Origin: an uncultured virus (IMG/VR IMGVR_UViG_3300025326_000022) | Taxonomy: Duplodnaviria > Heunggongvirae > Uroviricota > Caudoviricetes | Length of the DNA: 64,000 nt | Direction: 5' to 3' (one strand) | Virus record (IMG/VR): IMGVR_UViG_3300025326_000022 | Shown here: piece by piece, positions 1,852-60,200 of the stretch | Layout: each line of letters opens with the position of its first letter | How positions within the stretch are numbered: the first letter of the stretch is position 1 | Made by a program: the position numbers and the translations under genes | The notes under the pieces: model-generated | What the model was told of the DNA's origin: nothing | Database searches by the model: none | What the model saw: only the letters and a program-made list of their open reading frames with translations

Positions 1852-1881
1852 GGTCACCTCCTGGGTAAAGTTGTACCCAGC

Positions 1882-1910
1882 CTTATGACCAAGATGTCAA
1901 CAAAATTAAC
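1882..1910 (-). promoter_or_regulatory. class I promoter-like motif GTTAAT-N17-CATAAG
   Basis: One of four intergenic copies with identical 17-nt spacing. Confidence 0.6.
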
Positions 1911-1913
1911 GAC

Positions 1914-2267: not shown

Positions 2268-2299
2268 TGCTACAGTATAGCATCGTTCTACTCATCAGT

Positions 2300-2545
2300 T
2301 CAAGGGGTTCCACCATGGGTCTTGAATTGAGCACCAGGATCCCCTGGCAACACCCTGGCCCGGCCCCGGAGTGATCGAAGGATTTCGATCCTTGGGAGCT
2401 CCTCTGGACCTCGAAAGAATTTTGCCTTCCGGTCCATAATCCAGTGGAGCCGATCAGCTAACGAAAGATCAAGGAACCGTTGGATCGGGACTCGGGAAGG
2501 CCCCCCGGGCCCCTGGAGCACCACCATGATGTCGTGCAACTTCAT
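2300..2545 (-). CDS. hypothetical protein
   Basis: 81-aa ORF; TATAAT 8 nt upstream of ATG. Confidence 0.6.
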   Translation of the reverse strand: MKLHDIMVVLQGPGGPSRVPIQRFLDLSLADRLHWIMDRKAKFFRGPEELPRIEILRSLRGRARVLPGDPGAQFKTHGGTP

Positions 2546-2565
2546 AACCCTGGATTATACCACCC

Positions 2566-2594
2566 GTGTATTGACCCCAGCGGATGCGCATAAG
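2566..2594 (+). promoter_or_regulatory. class I promoter-like motif GTGTAT-N17-CATAAG
   Basis: Upstream of the pentapeptide-repeat gene. Confidence 0.6.
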
Positions 2595-2637
2595 GACTTG
2601 AGAGATCTATTGACCTTCAAACAAAAGGAGAAAGAAG

Positions 2638-27921: not shown

Positions 27922-29043
27922 CTACGATAGTTTGGTGTCACGAGCCAACGCCTGGGCCAGGGAAGTCTTGAACGTCTCGATCGACCCCTTGGTAGTCGTG
28001 ACCGCAGGGGCAATCTGCTGGAACCCAGGTTGTAGGGCTGCCAAAGGACCTTGCGCCGCAACAGCCAAGGCGGCCCCCGTGGCCGCCAGGCTGTCCATCA
28101 AGACGGACATACCCGTGAGGAACGCCTCCAACTGGGTCTTGAGGGTCGTGCCCAAGACCGCTGGTTCCGTGGCATTTGCCAATTCTACGCCTGAGTCTCC
28201 ATTTAGTTTCGCCTTCCCGGTAGCCGACATGTTGAATTCACCCTCGACCGTCATGTCGAAATCATCAGTGAATTCGAGCGTCGTGCTCGCGGCCGTGACC
28301 TTGAGGTTACCGGCCCGGTCGACAGTGCAGCGAAACACTTCTTCGCCATCCTTTTGCACAGCCCTGTGGTCCACGGGACGGTCTGGCATGTCGGTCACGT
28401 CGGTCACGTTCCCTTGCTTCAACACCAAGACCACCTCACCCTTGCTGAATTCCTTGACCTCGTAGACCAGCTCCACCGGGGTCCCGTCGATCCCCTTCTC
28501 ATCCCGACGGTTCTTCCAACGGAACTCGCCCCCGGCGGTCTCGAGGGTATAGTTTTCACAGATGTCCTTGATCTGGTGGAGCAGGGGGATGAAGATCCGG
28601 CGGGTCACGGGGTCGGCCGCGATGTCGACGATTCCACCGGCATGCACGTGGACGTAGTTCCCTGATTCCGACGACATCATGGTGTCACCCGGCCGCATGG
28701 CCTTGCGGCGACCCCGGGCGTAGCCCCTCTGGGCCACCACCGGGAGGAACATCAGGATCACGGGGCTCCGGACGTCCGACAGGTGGGCCACGATGCACTT
28801 GTCCCCCACCTGGGGCATGTACCCCATCATGGTGCCGTTGCGACTGACCCCCAGGCCCCCGATCTCAATGTTCGACGGTCTACGGCCCGAGAACTTGCAT
28901 TCCAGATCACACGTCCACAGATCTGGATCCACCCGCACGACTTCCGCCGTTTCAATCAGGACAGGCCGATCCGGCGGTACCCACCCGCCCCCAGGGTCTG
29001 GTAACTTCAGGCTCGTGAGCTGATCATCGCGGTTCAGCACCAT
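27922..29043 (-). CDS. putative baseplate spike (gp5/gpV-like)
   Basis: OB-fold-like N-terminus (YMPQVGDKCIV), beta-repeat middle, AVLG.TL C-terminus; TAATG coupling to RNAP stop. Confidence 0.65.
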   Translation of the reverse strand: MVLNRDDQLTSLKLPDPGGGWVPPDRPVLIETAEVVRVDPDLWTCDLECKFSGRRPSNIEIGGLGVSRNGTMMGYMPQVGDKCIVAHLSDVRSPVILMFLPVVAQRGYARGRRKAMRPGDTMMSSESGNYVHVHAGGIVDIAADPVTRRIFIPLLHQIKDICENYTLETAGGEFRWKNRRDEKGIDGTPVELVYEVKEFSKGEVVLVLKQGNVTDVTDMPDRPVDHRAVQKDGEEVFRCTVDRAGNLKVTAASTTLEFTDDFDMTVEGEFNMSATGKAKLNGDSGVELANATEPAVLGTTLKTQLEAFLTGMSVLMDSLAATGAALAVAAQGPLAALQPGFQQIAPAVTTTKGSIETFKTSLAQALARDTKLS

Positions 29044-32000
29044 TACCCTGCTGTTTTGGGATCTTGAATCTTGCCGAACCCGATGGACGGCAGGGGCCAC
29101 CGACCCGCTATGTCGGCCTTCGCGGCCGTCAGGACCCCGGTCTCCATGGTGCCGCGGAGTCGCTCGAACGACATCTTGGCTGCCCAATCATCCGTCCGGA
29201 TCAAGGGCATGGTGTTGACCCCCCGGATCATTGGGTTGGCCTTGACAGCCCCGCCATCTTCAATCTTGACCCTATTGATATTGTGATCCTTGAGGTCCTT
29301 GGCCACCAGGTCCGTCACCTCGGTGCCACGGCCATACTTGAGGTACTTCTCCGCCAGTTTTTTTCCAATGGCCCAGTCGGGCGCCATGTAGCGGCGGTTG
29401 AACGCCTCGATCTTGGCCATCGAGACGACATCACCACGCCCGAACCCCGAGGCACCGTCGGCCTGATCCACCACCCCGAGGTCAGTCATGTGGCGCACCA
29501 CCGTTTCGATGTGGCGCTTGTCAACCCCAAGGGGTCCGTAGAGTTCGTGGAGAGACCCTACCATGTGGTTCTGCGCGGCCCCAATGCCCGCGAGGCTGGC
29601 GAGCTGGTGGACATTCACCTGACCAGACGAAATCTTGTCCCCTTGTTGAACCTTGGTCCCAACCTTAACCTCCAGGGTCCTGGACGCCGGGACAAATTGT
29701 TCCTTGGTCCCAACGAAGACCTTCCATCCGGTCGCGGTCTTGTTGATCGATGTCACGGTACCGGTCACCTGGCTCAGGACGGCCTCGTCCTTAAGACGAA
29801 GCGGCGCTTTCAGCAGGGTCTCGGCCACGGCGAACTGATCCACGAGTTTCGAAGCCTTGGATGCCACGCCGCCTTCATGAAACAGCTTCATGGACAACTG
29901 GGTCGTGGGTTCCCCAAGGGACTGGCCACTGATCACCCCGATGTTGGTACCGACGGACGGATCGTTACCGTCGTGCCACCGGCCAAAACACTTGGCACAG
30001 ATGCCATCATGAGCTTCACATTTCAACGGAGTCCTGACCAACAGTTTCGATACCCCTGCGTTGCGGGCCGACATCACGACCGTGCCATCCACAAGAGTGT
30101 CCTTAGCTACTGACTTGTTCCCGATCTTCTGGGCCTTGGCCAGGTAACGCCCGATGATGTCACGACTCTTCACATCCTCGTATATCCCCTGGCTCGTCTG
30201 GCAATCTTCCGTGGTAACCCGGGCATCTGCCACCGTGCTGATGATCTGGCGGGACAGGTACCCCGGGAGCGCGGTCCCGCGGGACTTCGAGATCATGCCA
30301 AGCCGAGCCCCGTGGAGTGTGGTCCAGTAGTCCCCGAGTTTCAAGCCTTCGGCATACGACCGGTTGATCGGCTTGGGGGCCACGCGGCCCGCCTCCGTTG
30401 AAATCATGCCAGGCGATAAGACAATCTGCTTCAACTGGTCGAATGTCCCCCGGGCACCCGAGACAACGGTCTTGTACAACCCGTTGTCCTGGGCCGAGAG
30501 CCGGCGCTTGGCCTCGTGCTCGACCTTATCACGGGCCGTGCTGTACTGTTCGATCCGGCGGACCGAGTCCGTGGCGTTGGGAAGATGCTTGGCCAAATCT
30601 TTCATCGGCTTGAGATCCGCCATGCTGACCGACGCCCCGAGGGTAAAGGCAGCCTTGTCCCCCAGTTGCCGCATGGTCGTGAGGAACTGGGGGAAATCGG
30701 CCGGCTGGGTCTTGCCCACCTGGACCATCAGGCTGTTGACCTGATGTTTGTCCAGACGGAATTTTCGGTCGTACGCGATCTTCTGGTACCAGTCGTCATG
30801 TAGACGACCCATGGGGATCGCGTTGGCCACCAGGAGGCGTCCTAAGGTCGTCTTGCGCCCCCCAAAGGTCACGACGTCCTGGAGGCGAACCTGTCGACGG
30901 CCATACGCTTCCATCAATTTGTCGAAACTTTGGAACACCTGGTTTGTGTTCCTCCCCTCCTCGGTCAACAGGTAAAGCCCCAACTGCTGCTCATGCTGGG
31001 GCTTGTGCATCAGGGATCCGGACTTCACGCCGAAGAGGTTCCGGCTCGGGACGAGACCCTTGGCCTCTTCCTTCGCCGCCTCGGTGGCCGGGACGTAGAC
31101 CGATACGGTGTTGGACAGCACGACACCCTCGACGTTCATAAAGGTCTCGTGCCCCGGGACCGTGAGGTCGTAACCCGTCTCCCGAATACCCGTGACCTCC
31201 ACGGATTCCACCATGTCCCACGTAACATCCGTCTGCTGGACGATGTTCCACCACAGAGCGCCATCGGGGTGGGCCACAATCTGATTTATTGACACGTAAG
31301 ATGTGACTCGTTCAGCAGCATCTCGTGTTACATAGCCTTCTTTCGCTGCCTTGTTAAAGTTGAAATACGCATTCTTGCGAGCCTGCGGGGCGCTGCGTTC
31401 CATAGGAATACTTTTGTAGATGTGCTGGGCCAAGGAAACAGAGATAGGAACAAGATCGTGGCGCACGAGAGATGGGGTAATCCCTATCTCGATTGAACGT
31501 AATAGCTCCAGTTTATGTGAGCACGCCATACCTGCGCCGCCCCACCTCTTGACATCGTAGTTTGAGAAGCTAACTATCCATGAGGGCTTACCTGTAGAGG
31601 ACGACTTAAAAGCCGTGATACGTCCACGTACTCCTAGTGACGCCGCTAATAACAGTACCTCACGAACCAGGCGCAAACTGATGCTCGTAAAATTGGACAT
31701 CAACTGAGGCTTGCTTTTAGCTGTAGAAACCGAAATCGATCCGTCGGTATCCATCAACCCCGCGAACAAGCCCCTTCTAAATTCCAATGGAGATGTCAAA
31801 AAGAACGGAGGCAAGTGTTTGTTCTCCGCACCTTTTCCAATCCATCCCGCGAGAACTTTGCCAGCACTACTCGCAGAAAACGAGGCTCTTCGGCTTTCAC
31901 CGTAGGATGTGGTGACGTGCGCGAGACTAAAAGGCACAAGCCCTGTCTGCATCATCTCCGCGAGGCCTTCGGCAAACCGGAGTACCACATCATCATCTAT

Positions 32001-35000
32001 CGATGCTAGGCAGATCTGATCTATAGAAGAAACCCATCCATCGCCAGCGGCAGCCCCAAGGAAATAACCGAGTTTCTCTGTCAGTACAACTTCCGGAAAT
32101 ACTTGGTGTGATCGAGGCCTATTAGAGTTCTCCGCCCCTGTGAATGCATTGTGTAGTATTTCAGGGATGCTTAAGCGCTGGCCTCGAGGAACCAGCACCC
32201 GAGACTCGACTGCGGTAGCAGGTTGAAAGCGTCCGTAAAGTAACGTACCAGCGGCCATTCCGTAGACCGCACGGGGATCGTCGTCCGATACGATCTGTCG
32301 TCCAGATGCCAGTGTGATGATCTCTATTTCACGATCCAGATGCTTCGACCATACGGTCACGGGTGACCACACCAGTGCGCCGACAGTCTCATCTAAGGCT
32401 AGAACGTAAACTCCATTGGGCACCGCGTAGAACTCGATGGGACCCTTTTCTCCTTGCTTAGCTCCAATCAATTCACCGTGAGGAAAATCCTGCAAGTCTA
32501 ACAGGAACACCATCCCGTGGATGTCCATCGTCGGTAACACAGTTTTCAAACGTGCAGTCATGTCTTCGGCTCCTTGTTCCAGTATATGCTGGCACAAAAC
32601 CGAATCCGTTGCAAATACAACAACAGTGTCCAAAATTTGGTCCCCATCGAAATCTGCCCCATATCCCGTCGTCACGCTCGGGGGAATCCGAATCGTGTTG
32701 CCGGACGAAGATTTCGCATGGAACGCCTGGATACCAAACTTGTGGAGCACAGGATCTCGTTTCATCAGGACGGGACGATCCTTTAGCTCGTTGAGCAGCG
32801 CGGTCTTGGCTACCTCGGTCTTGTCCTTCACATGCTCCGCCGCCTTGGCGACCGGATATCCCGACTGCACGAGCGACCGGGTGACGAACGGGCCGAACAG
32901 TTCCCATAGGGCCTTGTCCGGCACCTCGATGGTGTCGACGTCGAGCTCGGGGTTCGGCACGATGGTGCTGCGGGCGCTGAGGTCTTGCCGACGCTTCAAT
33001 ACCTTCTTCTGGTAGAATCCGTACTTCGGGCTCGTGCCCGAGATCAACTGCATCACCCCCTTCATCGTTCGGTTGTGGGCGCTGTACCCCGAGATCGCGA
33101 CAGCGTCGACCATGTCCTGGATCGCGGCAGACCGCTGGGCCATCATTTCGGGAGGTAACTTCTTATCCCCTTGGTTCACCGCCTCGATCGTCTCCCCGAG
33201 CTTACGATACAGTTCATTGATATCCTCGTTGCTGATGGTCCCGTTCTTATTCACCACGATGGGGCGGAACAACGGTGGCAGCACGGGAAATTTGGTAAGG
33301 CAGTAGGCCTGGTCGGCCGTGTAGCCCAACTCCTTCAAGGCCTTGAGGTACTTGCGGGTCTTGTTGATCGTGTTGACATTCGACGGTGCCGCGGTCTCGA
33401 GATCCTGTTCCACGGTCTTGAGGCTCTTGTCCACGTCGATCCGGGCCAACAGGTTCTGCACCGCCGCACCCCCCACGACCGTGGCTTCAACGACCGGGAC
33501 GATATCGCCTTTCTTATTCAACCCCAGGTGCCCCTCGAGAATCTTGTCCACAAGGGTTCCGCCGTGATCGGGATGGTGGTAGGCCAACAGCCTGACGGCA
33601 CCGTCCCGCGTCACCGGGTTGACCACGGGGAACGGGAGGTTCATGTGGGTGTACTTCTTGCCATGGAGCCCACCGGTCCGTTGGGAATCGAAGATACCCC
33701 CTTGGTACGGCCGGAGCTTCGCGTCGAGCGCCTGGCCGGGGTTCTTCAATTCGCCGGCCGACATGGTCTCGATGTCTCGATCCGTCATGGGGAGCAGTTG
33801 GAGCGAATTGCCATCCTTCTTGACATGTACCCCCATGGCTTCCAGGAGCGCGAGAAACTTGGTTGCGGTGAACGGCACCTCGGCGGCCGGCAAGACACCT
33901 CCGTTCTTCAATGTTGACCAAAACAAAGCATTCTGAGCGTCCCCCTTGTACGAGAACATCTCCTTGAGGTTCGCCGTTGCCCCGTTGGCCAACAGGGCGT
34001 AGGTGTCGAGGATACCGATCGATTGGCCACCTTCGGAACCGCCCTTCGATGGAATCTTGTCACCCGTGTACTGGAGCCTTTCCCCCGTGGTCTTGGACAC
34101 TGCCCCTCGAGCCGATAGCTTCTTATCAACCTGATGGGTCAACTTAAAGATGTATTGGTTGCCCGTGAGCACCGGGTTTTCCGTGGGTCCGTCGACCGGA
34201 TCCACCACGATTTCGCGATCTTGAAGCCCATGCTTCTTCAACATGTCGGCCACGTACTTATGGTTGTCTTGCTCGGAGGCGAAGTTGTCCACCACCACGG
34301 GGTTCCCCGTCTTGGCCGCCACCTTGCCCACGAGGGTCTCGTACACTTGCCCCAGGTTCACACGCCCGACGACAGAATTACCAGACCATACTGGCACACC
34401 ATTCCTACGAACATACAGTAGCCCGCTGGGAACAGTCAAGCAGAATACATCGCCTTCGTAATGTACCCACTTTTCCACTTGTGCATGTTTTTTCCCTGGC
34501 CAATTAACAGAAGGTGTTGACCGTTTCAAAAAACTGACCACAAAGATATCCGTAACGGTTTCTCTGAAACAACTAATTTGTGTCGTTATCTGTGCAGAAA
34601 CACCAAGCTTAAGCGCAAGTTCCTGCACGTCGTCCGCCAGACCTTTCGAGGCCGTAAAATACCTCCGGTTGTCGTAGTGGGACGTTTGAGGTGAATTTCG
34701 TGTCGATCCATCGCCCAGCATGAGCCCGTTAAGCAGTAATTCTAAGGTAGCGCTCGGCCACGCCAGTGCCTGGCGTGGTATACGTTTGTTCTTGGCCCCT
34801 GTGCCCACATGTTCCATGAGCCAAAGGCATAATTCCCTATTTCGTGCAGTCCACTCAACTTGACCGTTGTCTCTTTCACGCCTGGAAAACGACCACGGTA
34901 ATAGAGCCAAAAAGCGTTCGATCTCCACGCATTTATCTGGATTCAATCTCTGTGACTGACTTAAACCCACATCATAGATGCCACCCTCTCGCCTACACGC

Positions 35001-37877
35001 CCAGCCTTCGGCGATGAACACTCCTAGGAACTCGGCAAATTCACTGGGGGCTATTTCCAGTTTTCTTGGGTCGGCTTTTGGCCCAGTACCATCACGATCT
35101 TCAGGTTCTCCGAAGCGCACAACCTCTGCAGAACTACCCACCCATTTTTCAGAATTCTTTAAGTAGTAGCGCCGCTGGCCAAAAATTTTCTTCGCTTCAT
35201 TGATTTCATACGGCGATTTCTCATTGCTGTCTCCTTTTCGCGTGTACATCCTATGGTTTGGCGTTACCATAAGGTCAAGTTTTTTATTCTTGATCCTGTA
35301 CATTGGCCCAACATAAAAACTTCGATGAACTGCCAGCACACTTTCATATACTAACTCTCCGTTTGGATGCATAGACGCTACGACGTCGCCTTGACTAACC
35401 TGTGAGAAAGGCAACCACCCATTTTCTGTCAAAACTTCTGTCTTGTCGTCGTAACACGCGGGGTTCATCAGGATTTCGAATGGCTTGCCCTCGAGGTCAT
35501 GGGGCATCTCGGCATCCGGGACAATCTTGCTGATGATCCCTTTGTTCCCGTGGCGCCCAACCAGCTTGTCTCCTTCGACGGCCGGTTCCTTGGTCTTCAC
35601 GTGGACGATGTACTTTTTGGCGAACTTCTCCACCGCGGTCACGACCCCGGGGTAATCTTTCTCCCACTGGATCGAGGAGTCACCGAACGATTGGAACGCC
35701 CGGGTCCCGACCCGAAGGATCGCTTCGCTGTCCGGATCAACTTCTTTCTCAAACATTCCCGCGTAGAGGTAATCCCCTCGGCTGACTTCCTGCCCCACCG
35801 TGATGACGCCGTCGGAGTCTAATTTCTGGGACTGGGCATGGGAGATGTTGTTGGGAAAATAGTTACGGAATTTGTCTCGACCCGAGATCGACTTCTCCCC
35901 CAACTCCACGACGAACTGGTGGAGATGATCGCTAGTCAGCTTGGTGGCTGCGGACTCGCTGATGGCCAAGGCATCCTCAAACAACAGGCCCTTCCACGGG
36001 ACGTACGCGACCCGAAGGTTCGTCCCAAGGGCAAGGGTCCCGTTCTTCGTGTAATTGGTATCGGCCAACACCTGACCCTTCTTCACCTTATCCCCCACGG
36101 ATACCAAGGCCTCGGAGTTGATGTACCCCTTGGAGTTGTTGAGTGGAAAATCTCGATACGTGTTGACTACCGAGGAAGCCCCGGCCTTGTCCTTCACGAT
36201 GATTTTGCCTTGCCGGACAGACGAAACTTCACCATCCACTAGACTGAGGCTGGCCCCAAGGTAGCGACCGAACCCCTGCTCAGCGGTCGAATCGGAGCGA
36301 CCGTACTTCAGTTGTACCAGGGGGGCTTCCCGATGGGTCAAGGAGATGGCCTGCTCGATCTGACGAGACGCCGTCATGGCCCTGACGCCGTTGTTCGATC
36401 GAAGAAAAGGGATCAGGTTGGTCGTGTGGTGGAACAGTCCCGCCTGGGAAGCTGGGACGTATTGAACCTCGGATGGCGGGTAGTCTCGCACGTCACCCCG
36501 GTGGGAAGCCATCACCTTGCTGGATTTTGCCTTCGGTGGCTTGACCTCAAAGTCATACTCGTCAGGGAACGCCACCACGGTGTCGAACACTTGTTTGGGC
36601 GTGAGGTCCACCTCCTTGCCAGTCTTCACGTCCATGAAGGTCGCGACCAGTTCGTTGCCCCGCTTCCTGGCCAACGAAGACAAGAACAAGGTTGTCCCGA
36701 TGGTCGAACCTTCCGGTGTCTTGATCGGGTCCAAGAACCCCATGTGGGACGAATGGATCGTCCTCATGTCGTCCCGAATCATGTTGGGGTCTGATATCCC
36801 CCCGGGACCCCGGAGCGTTGTCTTGCCGGTACCCGACAGAATGTCTACGACATTGTGCTGTTCGCGCCGTTGAGCCAACGGGGTCGCGGTAAAGAGCTTC
36901 CCGATCGCCGGCATCAGGATGGAGGTCGAGATCGTATCCTCCACCTTATTGGCGTGAGGCAATTTGTTGGAAATCTTTCGCCGTACTTCGCTTCCATGTT
37001 TCAGGATCCACTCACGAAGATAGTCCTCGTAGTAATGGACCGACTTGGTCACCAGGCTGTTGGGGTCATCCTCCTCTGTCTCCCCTCTGACCAGCTTGAA
37101 CAGTTTCTTCATGGTCGTGAGGATCGCGGTCTTGTCGACCGAAGATAACCTCATGCCCGTGGTGTACTCGGTGGCATCAGGATCAAGCTTGCTGTCATGG
37201 AGCGCCTGGACGATCACCTGGTAATCCGGTTTAGGTCCAGGGTCCAGGTCGAACAACGCCTTGTAGAGCTTGCTGTAGTCCCCGGGCTTCGCCTTCCCCA
37301 GGTTCGCGGTTGCGACCTCCTTGCCGACCGCAAGTTCAAGCTCTTGGACCGACACCCCCATGAGATCCAACAGGGTCGCGAGGGGTACGTGGGAAGTCCC
37401 TACCCCAAGGGTGTAGACCTTGGTCTGGGGATCAAAGAATATTTCGGTATTGCGGTAATATTTCCCCTCGGCCGAAATCCTGGAGGCAAACTCTCCCGCG
37501 TCCGTCACCCGGGTGTATATCCCTGGCTTGAGTCGAAACTGAGTATCGAATTGATACTCCTGGCCTCCAAAGATGAAGGTATGGCGAGCAGTCTTCTGCG
37601 GCAAGGTCATGAGCTTGACCCGACCCGTGTCCTTGACCTTTCCATTTTGATCCAACAGCGAGAACAGCCCCGAGACCGACATCCCCCAGACCCCTGATTT
37701 CAACTTGGTTTGGCGCTGAGATTCGTAATCCTGGGGGTCAAGCCGCTGGTCTACCTGCACACCGTCAAGCCGCAAGGTCTTGTCCCCCACGGTTATGTCG
37801 GTGAAGACTTCTTTGATCGCCCGTTCTACCGCGTCTTTAGCGTGACCGTCGGATTCCTCAGTTGTAAAGTATGCCAC
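29043..37877 (-). CDS. rpoBC: single-chain DNA-directed RNA polymerase, beta-beta' fusion, two inteins
   Basis: Beta motifs (TPEG..IG, GDKLVGRHGNKG, KLTHQVDKKLSAR) run in-frame into beta' motifs (RRQDLSARSTI, RDPVLH, GADFDGD, GYLSRQ, GEPTTQLSMKLFHEGG). Confidence 0.95.
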   Translation of the reverse strand: MAYFTTEESDGHAKDAVERAIKEVFTDITVGDKTLRLDGVQVDQRLDPQDYESQRQTKLKSGVWGMSVSGLFSLLDQNGKVKDTGRVKLMTLPQKTARHTFIFGGQEYQFDTQFRLKPGIYTRVTDAGEFASRISAEGKYYRNTEIFFDPQTKVYTLGVGTSHVPLATLLDLMGVSVQELELAVGKEVATANLGKAKPGDYSKLYKALFDLDPGPKPDYQVIVQALHDSKLDPDATEYTTGMRLSSVDKTAILTTMKKLFKLVRGETEEDDPNSLVTKSVHYYEDYLREWILKHGSEVRRKISNKLPHANKVEDTISTSILMPAIGKLFTATPLAQRREQHNVVDILSGTGKTTLRGPGGISDPNMIRDDMRTIHSSHMGFLDPIKTPEGSTIGTTLFLSSLARKRGNELVATFMDVKTGKEVDLTPKQVFDTVVAFPDEYDFEVKPPKAKSSKVMASHRGDVRDYPPSEVQYVPASQAGLFHHTTNLIPFLRSNNGVRAMTASRQIEQAISLTHREAPLVQLKYGRSDSTAEQGFGRYLGASLSLVDGEVSSVRQGKIIVKDKAGASSVVNTYRDFPLNNSKGYINSEALVSVGDKVKKGQVLADTNYTKNGTLALGTNLRVAYVPWKGLLFEDALAISESAATKLTSDHLHQFVVELGEKSISGRDKFRNYFPNNISHAQSQKLDSDGVITVGQEVSRGDYLYAGMFEKEVDPDSEAILRVGTRAFQSFGDSSIQWEKDYPGVVTAVEKFAKKYIVHVKTKEPAVEGDKLVGRHGNKGIISKIVPDAEMPHDLEGKPFEILMNPACYDDKTEVLTENGWLPFSQVSQGDVVASMHPNGELVYESVLAVHRSFYVGPMYRIKNKKLDLMVTPNHRMYTRKGDSNEKSPYEINEAKKIFGQRRYYLKNSEKWVGSSAEVVRFGEPEDRDGTGPKADPRKLEIAPSEFAEFLGVFIAEGWACRREGGIYDVGLSQSQRLNPDKCVEIERFLALLPWSFSRRERDNGQVEWTARNRELCLWLMEHVGTGAKNKRIPRQALAWPSATLELLLNGLMLGDGSTRNSPQTSHYDNRRYFTASKGLADDVQELALKLGVSAQITTQISCFRETVTDIFVVSFLKRSTPSVNWPGKKHAQVEKWVHYEGDVFCLTVPSGLLYVRRNGVPVWSGNSVVGRVNLGQVYETLVGKVAAKTGNPVVVDNFASEQDNHKYVADMLKKHGLQDREIVVDPVDGPTENPVLTGNQYIFKLTHQVDKKLSARGAVSKTTGERLQYTGDKIPSKGGSEGGQSIGILDTYALLANGATANLKEMFSYKGDAQNALFWSTLKNGGVLPAAEVPFTATKFLALLEAMGVHVKKDGNSLQLLPMTDRDIETMSAGELKNPGQALDAKLRPYQGGIFDSQRTGGLHGKKYTHMNLPFPVVNPVTRDGAVRLLAYHHPDHGGTLVDKILEGHLGLNKKGDIVPVVEATVVGGAAVQNLLARIDVDKSLKTVEQDLETAAPSNVNTINKTRKYLKALKELGYTADQAYCLTKFPVLPPLFRPIVVNKNGTISNEDINELYRKLGETIEAVNQGDKKLPPEMMAQRSAAIQDMVDAVAISGYSAHNRTMKGVMQLISGTSPKYGFYQKKVLKRRQDLSARSTIVPNPELDVDTIEVPDKALWELFGPFVTRSLVQSGYPVAKAAEHVKDKTEVAKTALLNELKDRPVLMKRDPVLHKFGIQAFHAKSSSGNTIRIPPSVTTGYGADFDGDQILDTVVVFATDSVLCQHILEQGAEDMTARLKTVLPTMDIHGMVFLLDLQDFPHGELIGAKQGEKGPIEFYAVPNGVYVLALDETVGALVWSPVTVWSKHLDREIEIITLASGRQIVSDDDPRAVYGMAAGTLLYGRFQPATAVESRVLVPRGQRLSIPEILHNAFTGAENSNRPRSHQVFPEVVLTEKLGYFLGAAAGDGWVSSIDQICLASIDDDVVLRFAEGLAEMMQTGLVPFSLAHVTTSYGESRRASFSASSAGKVLAGWIGKGAENKHLPPFFLTSPLEFRRGLFAGLMDTDGSISVSTAKSKPQLMSNFTSISLRLVREVLLLAASLGVRGRITAFKSSSTGKPSWIVSFSNYDVKRWGGAGMACSHKLELLRSIEIGITPSLVRHDLVPISVSLAQHIYKSIPMERSAPQARKNAYFNFNKAAKEGYVTRDAAERVTSYVSINQIVAHPDGALWWNIVQQTDVTWDMVESVEVTGIRETGYDLTVPGHETFMNVEGVVLSNTVSVYVPATEAAKEEAKGLVPSRNLFGVKSGSLMHKPQHEQQLGLYLLTEEGRNTNQVFQSFDKLMEAYGRRQVRLQDVVTFGGRKTTLGRLLVANAIPMGRLHDDWYQKIAYDRKFRLDKHQVNSLMVQVGKTQPADFPQFLTTMRQLGDKAAFTLGASVSMADLKPMKDLAKHLPNATDSVRRIEQYSTARDKVEHEAKRRLSAQDNGLYKTVVSGARGTFDQLKQIVLSPGMISTEAGRVAPKPINRSYAEGLKLGDYWTTLHGARLGMISKSRGTALPGYLSRQIISTVADARVTTEDCQTSQGIYEDVKSRDIIGRYLAKAQKIGNKSVAKDTLVDGTVVMSARNAGVSKLLVRTPLKCEAHDGICAKCFGRWHDGNDPSVGTNIGVISGQSLGEPTTQLSMKLFHEGGVASKASKLVDQFAVAETLLKAPLRLKDEAVLSQVTGTVTSINKTATGWKVFVGTKEQFVPASRTLEVKVGTKVQQGDKISSGQVNVHQLASLAGIGAAQNHMVGSLHELYGPLGVDKRHIETVVRHMTDLGVVDQADGASGFGRGDVVSMAKIEAFNRRYMAPDWAIGKKLAEKYLKYGRGTEVTDLVAKDLKDHNINRVKIEDGGAVKANPMIRGVNTMPLIRTDDWAAKMSFERLRGTMETGVLTAAKADIAGRWPLPSIGFGKIQDPKTAG
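31110..32639 (-). mobile_element. atypical intein (510 aa) with LAGLIDADG endonuclease, directly after DFDGD
   Basis: DFDGD|QILD...LGAAAGDG...AGLMDTDG...YDLTV...VVLSN|TVSVY. Confidence 0.8.
34377..35456 (-). mobile_element. intein (360 aa) with LAGLIDADG endonuclease in beta region
   Basis: MNPA|CYD...VTPNH...GVFIAEG...GLMLGDG...VWSGN|SVVGR. Confidence 0.9.
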
Positions 37878-48410: not shown

Positions 48411-49021
48411 TCGAGGATTACGCCCGGAACCTGGGTCCTGGGGGGCTGCTGGCCTACGTGGCCTCCCAGGACCTGGTGGTCGCGACGGACTTATATTCCG
48501 TCATGGCGATTCGGGAAGCATCCAAACTACTGGTACCCATGCGACTCAGGGCCATCGGGATGTACGCACGTCAGAACGCCGAATTACCGTCCACCGAAAT
48601 GCTTGACCCCAAGGCCAAGTACGACGTGGACCAAAAGTTCAAAAGCTTGATCTACAACAAAAGTCTCTTCATGTCCGACATCGTGGCGCTGGCGGAAGCC
48701 CAGGCCGACGCCGGGCCTCAGGAACGCCTCCCGCTTGTCAAGATGGGGGAGAACTCCGAAGGGATCGTGTTTCTAACGACCAATCGTCACAACGAGGTCG
48801 TCCATGTTGGGATACGGTATTACCGAAACCTGCTGGATAACAAGCTGGTACAACTTTACTCAGGGGTCAGGGATTCGTTTCGAGAACCAACCCATTCGTG
48901 GCGTAGCCTGCCGGTCGCGGCCAAGGGGGTCTTTTATCGCGCTGGAATCAACATCTATGGGCTGGTGATGCCACATGCCAAAATTTCACTCCCTTCTACC
49001 ATACATCGAAATCAAGACTGA
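48356..49021 (+). CDS. hypothetical protein
   Basis: 221-aa ORF filling the gap before polymerase. Confidence 0.6.
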   Translation: MATRFQYLKSERSALRGLIEDYARNLGPGGLLAYVASQDLVVATDLYSVMAIREASKLLVPMRLRAIGMYARQNAELPSTEMLDPKAKYDVDQKFKSLIYNKSLFMSDIVALAEAQADAGPQERLPLVKMGENSEGIVFLTTNRHNEVVHVGIRYYRNLLDNKLVQLYSGVRDSFREPTHSWRSLPVAAKGVFYRAGINIYGLVMPHAKISLPSTIHRNQD

Positions 49022-52000
49022 GGCCGAGGCTTTGGTCTTGTCCCAGGTGATCCGCGACCTGGGGATCGTGGCGTTCGATACCGAAACCACGAGTGAGGAT
49101 CCCCACGTCGCCCGCAACGTCCTGGTGTCCTTGAGCGTTCCCAAGACACCCTGGAGACCCCAATGGGGTGACCAATTGTTCGATCTTGCGCAAGGGTCCC
49201 GCCTGGTATTCGAACCCAACCCCGTGGTCGCGGTCCCGTTGGTCTCGATGCTCGACTGCGTTGGGGTTGACGTCATTGCCCACAACTACCCCTACGACGC
49301 CCACATCTGTTGGCGCACCTGGAGGGTTCGCCCGGGATTCCGTGCCCGGGTGTTCGACACCCTGGTGATGGATCACCTGGTGGATGAGAACCGGTACGGT
49401 CGTCATGGACTCAAGGAATGTTGCGGAGATTACGGATTAATCCACGGGATGAAGCCATTCAGCACCCTGTTTAAGAAACCGCCCAAGGGGATCAACCTGT
49501 CGCCGGCCGAGTGGGCCATGGAGACCAAACGAGAAGTATTCCTAGACTACGCGGCCACCGATCCCTACGCCACCCTGCTGCTTTTTTACGAACTCAAGCG
49601 TCGGCTTGAGGAGCAGGTATGGCAAGACGGCAAATCCCTTTGGGACTACTACATCGAGATGGAGGAACCGTATGTCAAGTCCATCTGGACGATGGAGCAC
49701 AACGGCGCCTGCGTCGAGGCCCATGCGCTCAAACGGTACGAAGCTCCTTTGAAATCAAGGATTCAGGAGATTGAGAACTTCTACACCCAGCGGGCAGGCC
49801 ATGTCATCAACCTAAACTCCAGTGACCAGCTACACCGGTTGTTCCACGAGACCATCGGGATGCCGATCGTCAAGTACACGGATGGCGGGGCCAGCGGGAT
49901 ACGGAAGGCCTCGTACAAAAAAGAGGCACTCGAAATCCTGGAGGAAGACTACCCCGATGACATTACCCCCCTGTTGGAGCACCGGAAACTCAGCAAGCTG
50001 TTGAGCACATATGTCGAGGGCTTGTCCAGCCATATCAAGAGTGACGGACGAGTCCATTGTCAGTTTCGCGTCACCGGGACTCGGACCGGACGTACCAGTT
50101 CTGCCTCACCAAATCTACAGAACGTCGAGAACCCATCGGAAGACGAGCGCATCCAGCAGTACGATATCCGGATTGCCTTCAAGGCCCCGGAGGGCAGATC
50201 CCTCGTGGTGGCGGATTTCAGCCAACTGGAGGTCTTGCTCACGGCCCAGATATCGGGTGATGAGAATTTGATCAAGGTGTTGCTAGAGGGCCGCGACCTC
50301 CACGCCTACACGGCCGCGAGCCTGTTTGACCTCAAGTACGAGGACATCCTCGAGGCCAAGGTTCTCAAGGAGTCGGGTGGTGTCCTGACGTCCGCACAAA
50401 AGAAGATGTTGGCGTGCCGCAAGTCGGCCAAGACATTGCTCTTCGGCATCCTGTACGGCATGGGGGACAAACGATTGGCCGCCAACCTTGGGGTTACGCT
50501 TGAGGAAGCCAGAGCGATCATCGACCTGTTCTTCAAAACATTCCCTGGGATACTCCAGGCCAAGAAGTATCACACAGGTTTCTGCAAGGCCAATGGGTTT
50601 GTCCTCACGCTGCTGAACAGGCGCCGACGGCTGCCGGAGATCTGGTCCAACAACATACGGGCTTCCTCCAAAGCGGAGCGCCAGCTCTTCAACGCCATCA
50701 TCCAGGGCTGTGTTGAGGGAAACTCCAGGGTATTGGTCGAAGGTCACGGCTACGTTCCTATCAAGTCGCTCGTCAATAGATCGGTAAGGATATGGGATGG
50801 TAACGCCTTTGTCGGCGCGGTGGTGATCGCTTCCGGTATGAAAAAGAAAATACTCGTTGAATTTGCATCTGGTAATCGAATCATCTGTAGCCCTGAGCAC
50901 AAATTCCTTACGGTTAACGAAGTTGGATCGGAACGCTTTAGAACCGCACTAGAATTTGCACCAATAGAGCGCATCAAACTTGCCCATGCAGTAAAGTTTC
51001 ATGGTCATGTAGAACTTCCGAAACCCACACTAAGGACACACCGGAAAGCTCCGAATGGTGTCGGCAACGCAAAAAGAATATCACTCAGCGCCATACAGAA
51101 TCCTCTAGCTCTAGGGATCATGCTGGGTAGATTGGCCTCAGACGGAACTATCGTTCGAAATAAAGCCTTGACCTGGCTGGTAGCGGAGCACGAGATCAGT
51201 ATCCTTCCCTACATGCTGGACTGCCTGAGCACCGCAGGGCTACGGTATAGACTCTGTACACGTCAGCGCCCCAACAAATTACCCATGCACATACTCAATC
51301 TGGACTCCGCTGTCCTGGCACGTCAAGCCACCGAACTAAACCTTAAGAATGGCATTCCAGCGGAGATATTCAAAGATTCTGAATTGTTGCGTGGATTCTT
51401 ACGGGGAATGTTTGATGGCGATGGTGGCGTGACAGGCAAAACTATCGCCCTTACATTCGGGCAAGGCGGAAGATTCAGAACTTACGCCGAAGAGATACAG
51501 CAAGCACTGTTGTTGTTTGGCATCGAAAGTCGAGTCCATACCTACGTCGATAGAACACTCGTACGATTACGCACTCGCGATCTCCATAAATTTGTACAAC
51601 AGATCGGATTCCTGAACCCTGCGAAGAATGCAAAGGCGCTGAGCCTACTCGCGAATGACAACGTGTCCAAAGCCTTCGGCAGGGTAGAGATTGTCCGTAG
51701 CGTAACAGAAACTGAAGAATACATCGAGATGTTCGATGTAGTCAACAGCGACACTGGACGATTTATGGTCAACGGGGTCATCACTCACAACTCCGCAGCA
51801 GACCTGATGCGCTACTACATGCCCGCGATCACGAACGATCCAGTGCTCAAGACCATGGGGGCGGATCTCGTGCTCCAGGTTCACGACGAAGTCGTGGAAG
51901 AAGTACCGGACCAGCACGCCGAAGAAGCCAAGATCATCATTGTGAACCACATGGAGGCATCGATGAGTCACATCGATTGGCGGGTGCCCCTGAAGGTAAG

Positions 52001-52037
52001 TGCGAAATACGCAACTACGTGGTCTGCGGCGAAATAG
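48975..52037 (+). CDS. polA: family A DNA polymerase with 3'-5' exonuclease and intein
   Basis: FDTET, HN..YD, YAATD; TGRTSS..PNLQN; DFSQLE; RKSAKTLLFGILYG; VHDE. Confidence 0.95.
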   Translation: MPKFHSLLPYIEIKTEAEALVLSQVIRDLGIVAFDTETTSEDPHVARNVLVSLSVPKTPWRPQWGDQLFDLAQGSRLVFEPNPVVAVPLVSMLDCVGVDVIAHNYPYDAHICWRTWRVRPGFRARVFDTLVMDHLVDENRYGRHGLKECCGDYGLIHGMKPFSTLFKKPPKGINLSPAEWAMETKREVFLDYAATDPYATLLLFYELKRRLEEQVWQDGKSLWDYYIEMEEPYVKSIWTMEHNGACVEAHALKRYEAPLKSRIQEIENFYTQRAGHVINLNSSDQLHRLFHETIGMPIVKYTDGGASGIRKASYKKEALEILEEDYPDDITPLLEHRKLSKLLSTYVEGLSSHIKSDGRVHCQFRVTGTRTGRTSSASPNLQNVENPSEDERIQQYDIRIAFKAPEGRSLVVADFSQLEVLLTAQISGDENLIKVLLEGRDLHAYTAASLFDLKYEDILEAKVLKESGGVLTSAQKKMLACRKSAKTLLFGILYGMGDKRLAANLGVTLEEARAIIDLFFKTFPGILQAKKYHTGFCKANGFVLTLLNRRRRLPEIWSNNIRASSKAERQLFNAIIQGCVEGNSRVLVEGHGYVPIKSLVNRSVRIWDGNAFVGAVVIASGMKKKILVEFASGNRIICSPEHKFLTVNEVGSERFRTALEFAPIERIKLAHAVKFHGHVELPKPTLRTHRKAPNGVGNAKRISLSAIQNPLALGIMLGRLASDGTIVRNKALTWLVAEHEISILPYMLDCLSTAGLRYRLCTRQRPNKLPMHILNLDSAVLARQATELNLKNGIPAEIFKDSELLRGFLRGMFDGDGGVTGKTIALTFGQGGRFRTYAEEIQQALLLFGIESRVHTYVDRTLVRLRTRDLHKFVQQIGFLNPAKNAKALSLLANDNVSKAFGRVEIVRSVTETEEYIEMFDVVNSDTGRFMVNGVITHNSAADLMRYYMPAITNDPVLKTMGADLVLQVHDEVVEEVPDQHAEEAKIIIVNHMEASMSHIDWRVPLKVSAKYATTWSAAK
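50709..51791 (+). mobile_element. intein (361 aa) with LAGLIDADG endonuclease in PolA
   Basis: IIQG|CVEG...SPEH...GRLASDG...GMFDGDG...ITHN|SAADL. Confidence 0.92.
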
Positions 52038-57228: not shown

Positions 57229-57257
57229 AAAGGCGGCGCTTCTGTGCCGCCTTTTTT
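57229..57257. terminator. probably bidirectional intrinsic terminator
   Basis: AAAGGCGGCGC-TTCT-GTGCCGCCTTTTTT between convergent genes. Confidence 0.85.
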
Positions 57258-60200
57258 AGTTCAAACTGCCGGAATCCATCACACCCACCATGGACTCCAT
57301 GCGGTACACCTTGAGCTTCGTGCCTATCGCGAACCCCGGGTACGGAGAATCGAAGATGCTCATGTTGGATATCCGAACTAAGTACTCTACCGTCGTTGAA
57401 CTGACGTAGAACGTCACCGGGATGACTACACCGTCAAACGGTTCACTTACAGGACCGCTCGTCCCTACACCCCATTCTGTCTCACCGACGATACGCTCGC
57501 TATCATCGAGTACCTGCACTTCGAAGACACCGGGGTTATTAATTATGTTGGGTGTGCTCGTATCGAGGTACAGCAGCAAAAGATACATTCCGGTACTGGG
57601 TAAAGTGTTGTCCGGTATCTTGAAAGTCCCGACTAAATCCGAAAATATAAATGTGGCGACAGCGCTGGAAGCTATAGCAGAAGCTAGTGTGACCTCGTGG
57701 ACTTTACGGAATTCGTCCCCGGTCAGTACCGAGGTATGAAAGTTAGCCCCGCTGGCATTCGTTACCTGTTTATTTAGTGGAATACCGAACCGGTTTCCAA
57801 CGACGACAGCGGCGGGCTGACTGTCGGTATCTTCCACCTGAACACCGCGGTCAAAAGATCCGTCGCCAACATTGTTCCTCACCTGAATCATATCGTTGTA
57901 ATTCGCAAGGCGTATAGCCTTGAACGTCGAGTCAAGTCCAATAAAACTGTTTTCGATGATCCTGTTACGTCGGGACACAAAGGAAGCAGTTCCCGTGAGT
58001 TCAACACAAGAACTAAACCCAGTGTATAGTCCTGTGTTGTCGTTGGGACCGTCAAACACGTTGCCACGGATGTCGCAATCAGAGCATTCAACAAGTAAAA
58101 CATGCTGCAGCCTCGGGGAAGTAAATGTGCTGTCCTTGATGGACACCGTCGAGAGCTCCGCACGGATAAGCGTATCCCCAGAAAAAGATCCCCAATAATC
58201 AGAGCTATCTAAAGTCGTATCGGGACGGAACGTACACCCACTGACTACTGCTGACTCGACAGAAACCAACTCTATAGCCTTCGATTTGACCACACCGGTA
58301 AACTCGCAATCCCGTACGGAAGCGTAAGCCGGAAAGCCGGAGCCAATACATTTAATGACGGCCTCACCAAAACCTTGGGGGAGCGCCACCAAGCTTCCGG
58401 GGTACACGTCGTATCGGAATTGGCAGTTGCTGATTTTTAACACTACCCCAACGAATCCGTAGTAACCGGCATCGGCCTGGCAACCCCATGCCGACACAAA
58501 GGAACCTGCGACAAGCCCTGGAGCCCACCGGTCAACAATCATGCCTGGACTATAGAGTGACTCCAACCCGTTGCTACCAAAGGTACACGATTGCAACTGC
58601 AGGTTAGTTGCAATTATCACGTATTTATTTGAAGTGGCGGACTCCGCCCAACTGCAGCTTCGGAACTGACAACCCCGGATACGTGTGGGCGGCGTCAGGG
58701 TACCGGAAATAAGACCGTCCGAAGCTGCTCCAGAGTACAGCGCGGCCTCTGTACACCATCTAAACGCGGTGTCGCTAAATTCAGCATCACTAAGTTTGGT
58801 ATTGAATCCATACTTGACCTTCTCAACAGCACATCTGCGGACGGCGATTTTATGAGGAGCACCGCCGTAGTTCGATGCCGAAAGGTCAAAAGCTGAATGC
58901 GTAGCCGTCGCCTGCAGCAGACCCGCGTCGACAATGGAGAACGGAAGCGTTCCCACCGTGGGAAATGAAAGTGGACCCCCGGGGTAAAGCTTGGTGGCGT
59001 CGGCTACACCCGGGGAAGTGACTACAACGTACCCCACACCTCCGCCTAGAATAGTAAACTCTCCATTCAGTGCCCTCACGGATCCCGACCCCGAGGAGAC
59101 AACCAATCTCTTACCAGCATAAAGGGAACCGTTGCTGATTTGCGGTGACATGAACGTGTTCGCCACCGACCACGACCCTGAACCAGTGGCATAAACCGTA
59201 TTGGCACTTTCAACCACACTTGCCCCTTCTATCGTCAGGTCCTCGAACTCCACAACGAGGGGTCCACTCGACGTGTTTTCGTTCACGAATATCGACCCGT
59301 TGTTGGGTATGGAATGGGTGGAGTTAACAACAATTTTGGTAGACCCGCGGCCCTGCCCGATGAATTTTATGTGGCGGCACGGTATCTGCCCAGAGACGCC
59401 GATCTTGATGACGTCAGTGATGTTGTACGTCCCCTCTAGAAGTACAATAGACCCTCCCTTTGGATTCGTTGGACCGCCGGGTGATTCCGCTTCTAAATCA
59501 CGGAGGGCGGTATTGATTGCATTCTGGGCAGAACTCGTGGCGACGTAGTCCGCCCGACCGATATTGACGGAATCGGGAGCCGCTATTACGAATGTCGCCG
59601 GCACGGAGACGTCACTTACTGCCGCCACGGTCTCCGGTATACCGGGTAAGTCATTTTTCGTGAACTGGATCGAACCCCCGTAATCCATCCAGAAGATAGG
59701 CCTCCAGGTACCCGTTGCACCCCCTGGGGTACCGGTCACGGGGACAGATCGACCCGCAATACTGTCGGACGCACTCTTGAGGGCATAGATGGCAAACAAA
59801 AAATTCGGGCTCAGGAGAGCCATCGCGTAGGCGTTGCTCCCAAATCGAGTGTCCAAGGTACTTTTCCCTACCCACACGGGTCCCGTGTCGTTGTAGTCGA
59901 CGTTGTGAGTAAAGACCAGGGAGAAGGAGTCGGACGAACCAGGGGCATTCGGTCTCGGGAGACTCACATCTTGCCACTGGCGGAAGAACGACATGAACTT
60001 GAACAATGGAATCGCCCCGATGACCGCGGATGAACCGGGGGATCCCTGGACAATCGTCCCACTGGTCGTGATGGCAAAGACCATGCGCCACGTCTGGGTC
60101 CCGGGGGTCCCGGTGGCCGCGATGTAACCGGGCGCTGCCCTCAGGGTCGTGGTCTCGCCTGCGGTCAGCCGATAGAGTGCAAACAAATGACCCTCTCCCC

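Follow-up and report, generated by a model that had tools for sequence, protein, structure and literature searches.

A conserved family of apparent inteins, mostly without a residue-1 nucleophile, in the catalytic loop of phage RNA polymerases

How might an intein be removed from the catalytic loop of an RNA polymerase (RNAP) when it lacks the residue with which splicing usually begins? The question is raised by a 64,000-nucleotide stretch of DNA from an uncultured virus (IMG/VR record IMGVR_UViG_3300025326_000022), called the window here. One gene on its minus strand (29043..37877, with the GTG start as listed) encodes a 2944-residue fused beta-beta' RNAP of the multisubunit type, as identified by Pfam, and the catalytic DFDGD loop of that protein is interrupted by an insert of 510 amino acids. 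All features of this gene given below lie on the same strand. From the sequences compared, the insert belongs to a real, conserved and apparently undescribed family, whose variant chemistry we infer rather than observe directly. We give about an even chance (roughly 0.5) to real splicing by some non-canonical route, which would restore DFDGD-TVSVYVP.

The insert and its family

The N-extein ends with the DFDGD loop (residues 1742–1746, 32640..32654), the last residue of which, Asp(-1), is the third Mg-binding aspartate. The loop residues D, D, G and D are invariant in 176 of 176 aligned relatives. The insert follows as residues 1747–2256 (31110..32639), from Gln1 to Ser509-Asn510, and is delimited by the translation, by Pfam and by an AlphaFold2 model. 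It is preceded by ...GADFDGD and followed by TVSVYVPATEAAKEE. It ends in VVLSN, and the first C-extein residue is Thr+1 (31107..31109) of TVSVYVP. A preliminary description had placed an intein at exactly this position, with removal restoring DFDGD|TVSVY, and by the translation and the intein-less alleles it was correct to the base. A search with the C-extein recovered 52 relatives without an insert at the DFDGD site. They are single seamless chains that read DFDGD|(T/Q/A/K/S/V)M..[FH]VP, and since they keep the same spacing, the junctions are exact and excision of Gln1 through Asn510 restores a normal loop. Presumably the bacterial loop reads DFDGDQ. Gln1 was considered as a native extein residue, with the intein starting at residue 2; this was rejected because the loop would then be one residue longer than in the 52 intein-less relatives. 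The idea that the N-terminal strand of the insert is a copy of the native QMAVHVP strand was also rejected: the family consensus at positions 3–6 does not match, and a sister intein (P0271, below) has the same strand right after its Cys1. The residue at the +1 place in the intein-less relatives is Thr in 30, Gln in 9, Ala in 7, Lys in 4 and Ser and Val in one each. The two nearest relatives of the window RNAP (58–59% identity in the C-extein) are without the insert and have Ala and Gln there. Judged from these alleles, Thr+1 would be required only where the intein is present.

The AlphaFold2 model of the insert has a predicted local distance difference test (pLDDT) of 86 and a predicted template-modelling score of 0.85. 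In this model an endonuclease domain interrupts the HINT fold of the insert, and the ends of the fold are brought close to each other. Foldseek matches the model to solved LAGLIDADG inteins (7qss at E 8e-19, 2cw7, 1dq3 and PI-SceI); the matches include the TliVMA, PI-PkoII, PI-PfuI and PI-SceI inteins, at E 8e-19 to 1e-8. The HINT fold that the preliminary description had put forward for modelling is thus what the model returns. The Pfam family Intein_splicing scores 28–33 bits on the insert, under its cut-off of 35.8 bits. The G+C fraction is 0.49–0.52 within the insert versus 0.58–0.61 in its flanks.

Gln1, IVSDDDPR, the Ser-Asn end, Thr+1 and both LAGLIDADG motifs, all of which had been read from the DNA beforehand, are seen in the translated open reading frame (ORF). 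The HINT N-lobe spans insert residues 43–175 (32115..32513), with the DLxDFPH strand and loop at residues 48–54; it is drawn from model strands and from conservation, which across the family sets in at about residue 43. W97-S98-K99-H100 (32340..32351) is a candidate NX motif in the alignment of relatives. The equivalent of block B (N3) is S118-D-D-D121-P-R123 (32271..32288), which aligns at the place of TxxH as part of IVSDDDPR and follows a ..SGRQI strand as in PI-PkoII. Position B:7 is Ser in the window and Thr in most relatives, and His B:10 is replaced by Asp121. The LAGLIDADG homing-endonuclease domain occupies about residues 185–400 (31440..32087), as identified by LAGLIDADG_3 (E 1.5e-9) and the fold matches. 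Both of its motifs are there (AAGDGW and LMDTDGS), each with its acidic residue (GDGW, DTDG). Blocks F and G, GYDLTVPGHETFMNVEGVVLSN (31110..31175), were placed by alignment to the Ssp DnaB mini-intein, and GYDLTVPGHETF stands in block F. Asp F:4 is kept, Glu498 takes the place of the F:13 His, G:6 is Ser and G:7 is Asn. When the family profile is set against that mini-intein (1mi8), FDLTVPGPHNFVANDI is aligned to YDLTVPGyETFmsvdG at E 2e-5, with Asp F:4 retained, His F:13 changed to Glu and His G:6 changed to Ser. The insert departs from class 1 in that residue 1 is not Cys, Ser or Thr and block B reads SDDD without His B:10. It had been said to lack every standard N-terminal splicing residue. 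That holds for Gln1 and for the absent block B His; it is too strong for the remainder, as Ser/Thr B:7, Asp F:4 and the WSKH His are all kept. The block F Asp had been listed as a further oddity, which it is not, Asp being the normal class 1 and class 2 residue at F:4.

A search with RNAP residues 1700–2300 returned 303 proteins at E<=1e-3, all fused RNAPs with the insert, at 34–49% identity. The insert alone, searched against 1.8 billion representatives, gave 886 matches at E<=1e-3 and 249 at E<=1e-30. These sequence matches point to a large family living at the DFDGD|T site of fused or split beta-beta' RNAPs of phages. The alignment used here has 177 inserts: a regular expression for the C-terminal motif selected 178 of 228 proteins, from which a duplicate query sequence was taken out. 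The counts for blocks F and G in it (D491, which is F:4, in 177/177; E498 in 171/177) partly follow by construction, since that expression chose the members. An unbiased count of the C-terminus was made at a fixed offset from a loose block F match, which could be done in 202 of 210 TDDDPR-type proteins. The terminal Asn and Thr+1 are each present in 202/202, and the penultimate residue (G:6) is Ser in 200 and His in 2.

At the other end, residue 1 is free to vary among mostly non-nucleophilic residues: in 171 relatives it is Gln in 72, Glu in 20, Ala in 20, Asp in 18, Leu in 8, Cys in 7, Phe in 5, Ser in 5, and a few others. Residue 2 is mostly Gln (110). A copy degenerate among homologues that start with Cys or Ser, which the preliminary description had kept in view, is contradicted by the 12 of 171 that do so. 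The conservation it had proposed to examine in homologues is found for the WSKH His and for DDPR, and not for Gln1 itself. Within W-S-x-H, His100 is present in 176/176, position 98 is Ser in 169 and Thr in 7, and Trp97 is present in 152. In the block B equivalent D119 is found in 175/176 and D121 and R123 in 176/176, with Thr, Ser or Ala at position 118 (147, 20 and 8). The near-invariant stretches are the DLxDFP strand, T118-D-D-D121-P-R123-A-V-Y-G, E498-T-F and G505..L-S-N|T. The acidic residues of the endonuclease motifs are mostly intact (position 200 is Asp in 145 and Asn in 29; position 299 is Asp in 169). The family lacks the block B, F:13 and G:6 histidines, a thiol and the residue-1 nucleophile. 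The absence of a residue-1 nucleophile and of the block B His is, on this alignment, a conserved trait of a large family on which purifying selection acts. No description of such an intein was found in a literature search whose scope did not extend to subscription journals, and the family is apparently undescribed. The word intein is absent from the account of phages with multisubunit RNAPs by Weinheimer and Aylward 2020 (PMC7481178).

Selection on the insert is close to that on the polymerase around it. Among 75 proteins the intein averages 38% pairwise identity and the 600 extein residues around it 37% (Spearman 0.49), and the nearest neighbour is the same for intein and extein in 30 of the 75. 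When 133 polymerases are arranged by an extein tree, those with and those without the intein are interleaved, with at least 25 parsimony changes. The interleaving and the mismatch of neighbours indicate mobility, and a mobile element must leave the polymerase it enters able to work. Four further IMG/VR contigs contain an identical copy of this phage sequence with an unbroken ORF, and 15 listed soil or sediment runs contain at least half of the words sampled from it; 12 of these runs are possibly the source of this DNA. Contigs from 4 DNA runs held neither joints nor an intein-less allele, a result that is uninformative either way because contigs drop rare variants. An Rfam scan of 30800..32950 at E<=1 gave a single chance microRNA-like match, outside the insert. 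Removal at the RNA level is unlikely, since there is no RNA-family match and the insert is an in-frame HINT/LAGLIDADG protein. Taken as sequence, the insert looks like a functional, mobile intein.

The same C-extein search found five further inteins at the DFDGD| site, and these have a canonical N-terminus. P0271 is a contiguous mini-intein of 264 residues without a linker, with Cys1, FSVH, TDDH and the end IYD|S. The other four have Ser1: P0277 (FSIH, SDDH, IYD|S), P0241 (FSIH, SSDH, VWD|T), P0276 (FSVH, SSDH, VQD|T) and P0242 (FSFH, SEDH, LHN|T). P0271, P0277, P0241 and P0276 share with the window family the LxDFP strand, [F/W]SxH, the YDLT block F and the insertion point, whereas P0242 has in common with it only FSFH, the position of the block B His (SEDH) and the site. 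The linker is shared by three of the five (P0241, P0276 and P0277). Unlike the window family, the sisters keep Ser1 or Cys1 and the block B His, and four of the five end in Asp rather than Asn; two of the Asp-ending ones (P0271 and P0277) have Ser+1. Since the sisters keep Ser1 or Cys1 at this site, Gln1 occupies the old nucleophile position. The window family is thus a derived branch that has lost Ser1/Cys1 along with the block B His; Asp121, Pro122, Arg123, Glu498, Ser509 and Asn510 became fixed at the same time.

A separate N-terminal piece and an internal start

The preliminary description overlooked that the first 26 residues of the insert form a separate piece resembling the N-terminal part of a split intein (IntN), that codon 27 is a start codon, and that split relatives exist; together these open a reading with two pieces and no splicing. 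The IntN-like piece (QILDTVVVFATDSVLCQHILEQGAED, 32562..32639) is recognised from model secondary structure and from the tails of split relatives. Its model has a strand at residues 5–10 and a helix at residues 12–21 (pLDDT 65–72); a disordered linker covers residues 20–40 (pLDDT <50), and the HINT core starts at residue 43. Alignments to relatives by phmmer begin at insert residues 25–48. Met27 (32559..32561), supported by the alignment and by codon counts, is a conserved internal start codon that opens an M-x-A-R-F/L-K stretch; 123 of the 177 aligned proteins have Met in this column. Eight nucleotides upstream of this codon is an internal Shine-Dalgarno (SD) site, AAGGAG (32570..32575), in the context ACAAGGAG, an octamer that also precedes two other ORF starts of the window.

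A search for loci with the single protein P0127 found no relative, and one with the family alignment found 56 IMG/VR loci, of which 41 distinct ones were examined. In 32 of the 41 the gene is fused, with one frame and no stop across the poorly conserved linker. A Met lies 15–25 codons ahead of the DLxDFP motif in 36 of 41. It has a strict SD match 4–17 nucleotides upstream in 15 of 27 fused loci, versus 123 of 1432 control codons, namely the remaining in-frame Met codons of these ORFs (Fisher p=1.4e-9). Where M-x-A/S-R could be placed (24 loci), codon 27 is ATG in 18, GTG in 4, TTG in 1 and ACT in 1, so that 23 of 24 have a start codon. All four Val codons at this position are GTG, against a background of 29%. 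The constraint is on the nucleotides, because the SD matches sit in different reading frames and encode different residues. Ten database proteins start with Met 13–17 residues before the HINT core. A relic of an ATGA stop-start overlap at Met27 was considered and rejected, as it is not conserved across the family.

Both a stop and a restart are seen in the loci L039, L041/42, L043, L045/46 and L049/L055. In L048 and L050–L054 there is a restart only, and the N-side gene was not found within the locus. The N-side gene of the split relatives stops after DFDGD by 13 residues (L049/L055), 21 (L045/46), 24 (L043) or 25 (L039), and in L041/42 it stops 54 residues after DFDGD in another frame. The first residue of these tails is Cys (L049/L055), Leu (L045/46), Phe (L043), Tyr (L039) or Gln (L041/42). 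The C-side gene begins at the Met. At about 2871..3060 of L041/L042 the N-side gene, reaching 54 codons past DFDGD, overlaps the start of the C-side gene, which is either a real overlap or an assembly frameshift. In L049 a spacer of 1.26 kb is followed by a 237-residue C-terminal intein part (IntC) without an endonuclease domain; the spacer (1705..2967) holds an ORF of 158 residues (2084..2560) to which no family was assigned. Split inteins in fractured genes, accompanied by a free-standing endonuclease gene, were reportedly described by Dassa and colleagues in 2009. L049/L055 are like these in having an N-side gene that ends 13 residues past DFDGD, and L049 in its spacer and endonuclease-less IntC; the window copy is unlike them, being fused, with the LAGLIDADG domain in its usual in-frame place.

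The split pair of L045 was modelled as a complex. Tail residues 3–12 insert, antiparallel, between the strands of DLxDFPH and block G, and extending this register by hand brings the scissile bond to about 2–3 residues from the Asn. The interface score ipSAE was 0.66, 0.75 and 0.01 in the three runs (median 0.66), and the best of 3 controls scored 0.00. The mark applied to this score is reached by 116 of 157 solved complexes and by 2 of 215 mismatched pairs, counts that hold roughly here, where our own alignments were used. Across the runs contact agreement was at least 0% and partner pLDDT at least 28. The pass of L045 in this model may reflect likeness to solved split inteins.

Since the N piece is separate, the Met27 start is conserved and split relatives exist, we read the element as an atypically split intein whose halves are in most genomes joined in frame. 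The window copy is one ORF rather than the two genes of an atypically split intein, and it keeps the start signal of the C half. The start at codon 27 in fused genes could serve to express an endonuclease-bearing IntC, to supply a second pool of the C-terminal part of beta' (beta'C), or for regulation. A separate matter is that in at least 28 relatives (among P0064, P0122–P0139 and P0150–P0226) the protein ends 85–103 residues past the C-junction of the intein. In these, beta' is broken again downstream, and the intein-bearing gene delivers about 84–100 residues of it.

Proposed splicing by a variant route and its rivals

Class 2 inteins start without a nucleophile at residue 1 and carry Ser at G:6; they depend on Thr B:7, Asp F:4 and His B:10, and their attacking residue is Cys+1 (PMC4031507). 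The Mja KlbA orthologues of this class begin with Ala1 (Southworth et al. 2000, via PMC4031507), a residue found in 20 of 171 here. The window family is like class 2 in being without a residue-1 nucleophile and in its Ser G:6, Asp F:4, Thr B:7 and terminal Asn, and it is proposed to skip the first acyl shift as class 2 does. It is unlike class 2 in having Thr+1 (202/202) rather than Cys+1 and an invariant Asp rather than His at B:10. Class 2 is also a single KlbA orthologous group, unrelated in host protein (a phage RNAP here), in lineage and in split ancestry.

Inteins that rely on oxygen nucleophiles alone (Ser1, Ser/Thr+1) share a conserved His ahead of block B, called the 'NX' motif (Pasch et al. 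2023, PMC10189870). In that account the NX His lies within hydrogen-bond distance of Ser1, and splicing is abolished when it is mutated; Cys1 inteins show no conservation at this position. PolB16, itself atypically split with an IntN of 15 residues, can do without its block B His. The window family resembles the cysteine-less class 1 intein PolB16 OarG in being of the Thr+1 oxyester type with a His kept some 20 residues before block B, in doing without a block B His that is dispensable there, in having a viral or metagenomic polymerase as host, and in an atypical split with a short IntN (15 residues there, 13–54 in the split relatives here). It differs in that those inteins all keep Ser1, and in that every member of the Ser1 set has the block B His (PMC10189870). 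Class 3 (Tori et al. 2010, PMC2807308) shares the absence of a residue-1 nucleophile and a phage origin. Splicing is rescued there by another nucleophile (PMC2807308, PMC4031507), a likeness that is here a proposal. Class 3 has Cys at F:4, unlike Asp491 here (177/177), and Cys rather than Thr at +1. As read from the alignments, the chemistry of the family appears to fit none of classes 1, 2 or 3.

The ancestor would have been a cysteine-less class 1 intein with Ser1/Thr+1 and an NX His, atypically split after its first strand. Later the halves would have been fused in frame in most genomes, including that of the window, leaving as relics of the split the 26-residue IntN-like strand and helix, the floppy linker, and the ribosome-binding site with its Met27 start. 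Ser1 and the block B His would have been lost together; Thr/Ser B:7, the candidate NX His100, Asp F:4, Ser G:6, Asn G:7 and Thr+1 would have been kept; and Asp121, Arg123 and Glu498 would have been gained as invariant residues.

The preliminary description had proposed a non-canonical splicing route by direct attack of Thr+1, or a conditional switch on RNAP. Non-canonical splicing is a reasonable reading because the family is conserved and the WSKH His, Thr+1 and the terminal Asn are invariant; splicing itself, the direct attack and the switch all stand as proposals. Of the weight given to splicing, about half would go to direct attack by Thr+1 and the rest to a nucleophile at Ser98-His100 or to an anhydride at Asp(-1). 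In the direct route the first N-O shift would be skipped, and the Thr+1 hydroxyl, activated by a nearby His or Asp, would attack the Asp(-1)-Gln1 bond, the part played by Cys+1 in class 2 (KlbA) inteins. Cyclisation of Asn510 and an O-to-N shift would follow; of these steps the Asn510 cyclisation is predicted with near certainty. Ligation is argued to persist because Thr/Ser B:7, the candidate NX His and Asp F:4 are retained and Thr+1 is invariant. Since His100 is invariant and the NX His is critical in cysteine-less inteins, the chemistry of the N-junction is argued to be still under selection.

Several observations weigh against this reading. The class-2-like route is the simplest, and its weak point is that Thr+1 would do the task of Cys+1 without His B:10. 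Threonine is ill suited to attack an amide directly. WSxH is equated with NX on the basis of its position and of one weak profile alignment, which sets the WSxH His on ..IRH of PI-PkoII just upstream of block B with a domain i-Evalue of 23. The invariance of Thr+1 could partly reflect ancestry, a target preference of the endonuclease, or co-conversion during homing, since Thr is the commonest residue at the +1 place even without an intein (30/52) and, among 16 disjoint nearest pairs of intein-less and intein-bearing relatives, 12 are T/T and 4 differ. Modelling is weak where it matters, in the N piece (pLDDT 65–72) and the linker (<50), and in the L045 complex residues 1–2 and DFDGD lie outside the confident interface and one of the three runs gave 0.01. 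The residue before the NX His is an invariable Lys or Arg in the set of that source (PMC10189870), and Lys or Arg here in only 85 of 176. The conserved internal start implies that a separate IntC-beta'C protein is probably made, which is not needed for splicing in cis and fits a two-piece enzyme at least as well.

A more ambitious view, which we hold tentatively and think less likely than its negation, is that the family may be a fourth mechanistic class, an oxygen-only intein that has given up Ser1 and His B:10, both needed for the first acyl shift, and in which the chemistry of the N-junction has been rebuilt. A protease-like triad around Thr+1 or Ser98, with His100 and Asp121 or Asp491, may do the work, or else an Asp(-1) anhydride. 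The gene may be read twice, as a full cis-precursor and, from the internal start, as IntC-beta'C, and maturation of the polymerase active site could then be tuned or gated at a post-translational stage.

The principal rival, unlikely in our estimate, is cleavage only. The HINT domain would no longer ligate and the polymerase would be a two-piece enzyme nicked at DFDGD. HINT would serve as an N-terminal pro-domain or assembly module of the C-part of beta', gripping the IntN-like tail as a split intein does and so setting the TVSVYVP strand beside the catalytic loop; Asn510 cyclisation would free a C-fragment starting with Thr, and the tail (in fused genes the whole insert) would stay on the N-part. 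The Met27 start would yield IntC-beta'C directly, which agrees with the conserved SD site and start codon in fused genes and with the existence of real split genes. Ser1 and the block B His, lost together, are both residues of the first step, and Asn510 is invariant. The polymerase family tolerates breaks, as in the at least 28 relatives that end 85–103 residues past the C-junction, and uncoupled C-terminal cleavage is a known side reaction, about 9.5% in PolB16 (PMC10189870). However, the nick would fall right after a Mg-binding Asp inside the double-psi barrel, and a 510-residue domain would be left attached in fused genes. Asn cyclisation is independent of Thr+1, the NX His and Thr B:7, yet these are (nearly) invariant; keeping both parts in one frame, as 32 of 41 loci do, makes little sense for two proteins; and the intein-less relatives are single seamless chains.

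Rather improbable, in our view, is an internal nucleophile of the class 3 kind, in which Ser98, activated by His100 with Asp121 or Asp491 as third partner, would attack the Asp(-1)-Gln1 bond to form a branched ester and hand the N-extein to Thr+1, with the usual last steps. Position 98, Ser or Thr in 176/176, is the only strictly conserved hydroxyl of the N-lobe, His100 is invariant, and Thr B:7 is replaced by Ala in 8 sequences. The NX His is beside the N-terminal scissile bond in the PolB16 structure (PMC10189870), and class 3 is a precedent for an internal residue replacing residue 1 (PMC4031507). Against this, [F/W]-S-x-H is already present in the Ser1/Cys1 sister inteins, so that Ser98 is not tied to the loss, and residues i and i+2 on one face of a strand may not reach the scissile carbonyl.

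We see little prospect that the insert is simply tolerated as a domain without processing, or that the gene is dead in this phage. The first-step residues are missing, and the nearest related record (G001, 78.5 kb) has, like the window, one RNAP match; because that record is 43% complete, a second polymerase could exist. This is opposed by the invariance of Asn510 and Thr+1, by a HINT core conserved like the polymerase core, by recurrence of the intact 2944-residue ORF in independent contigs and runs, and by the position inside the catalytic barrel. Least credible of all is an extein-assisted route through the chemistry of Asp anhydride formation, in which the invariant Asp(-1) would attack its own carbonyl (as in Asp-X or GD|PH autocleavage), free Gln1 and leave a cyclic anhydride to be captured by Thr+1 or the freed C-extein amine: it would explain why the residue-1 nucleophile was lost at this particular site, where residue -1 is necessarily Asp (176/176) and new invariant charged residues (Asp121, Arg123, Glu498) surround the junction, but it has no intein precedent in the literature searched, it risks an isoaspartyl linkage at a Mg-binding Asp, and the sister inteins, which also follow Asp(-1), still have Ser1 or Cys1.

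Phage setting and significance

The source is an uncultured soil phage. The window has genes for a large terminase (TerL), a head protease, a family A DNA polymerase (PolA), a DnaB-like helicase, a primase and a UvsX-like recombinase. The RNAP ORF matches Rpb2_6 (E 5e-47), Rpb1_5 (1e-27) and Rpb1_2 (3e-17), also Rpb2_3, Rpb1_1 and Rpb1_4, as well as LAGLIDADG_3 and Intein_splicing in Pfam. A tblastn search of the RNAP against 50,697 deposited phage records found no close relative, every match being below 31% identity.

The window contains three inteins, of which two are canonical. The RNAP holds two inserts, and the first, at residues 808–1167 in the beta part (34377..35456), is an ordinary intein of 360 residues. 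It reads LMNPA|C1YDDKTEV at its start, has TPNH as expected for the TxxH pattern of block B, a LAGLIDADG domain and the end VWSGN|S, and its G+C fraction is 0.47–0.51. The PolA gene (48975..52037) carries a canonical intein of 361 residues at 50709..51791 on the plus strand, with AIIQG|C1VEGNS, block B SPEH, a LAGLIDADG domain and the end VITHN|S. From these two ordinary Cys1 inteins it follows that the phage carries inteins of a working type. An ORF at 57256..63990 on the minus strand, of at least 2244 residues and running past the end of the window, has a weak right-handed beta-helix match (25.4 bits, just under the Pfam cut-off); its product is possibly tail fibre or depolymerase-like.

Three splicing mechanisms are recognised, classes 1–3, and classes 2 and 3, both cysteine-dependent, each trace to one event. 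The family described here counts hundreds of members, is under strong selection and sits within the catalytic loop of an RNAP that is presumably essential to the phage; a conserved internal start within an intein is unusual in itself. If the insert splices, it would do so by a new way of breaking and remaking a peptide bond, and it would offer cysteine-free ligation tools unconstrained at residue 1, including natural split pairs with N pieces of 13–25 residues. If it does not splice, these phages would have a multisubunit-type polymerase that works with a nicked active-site loop, which would be equally unexpected.

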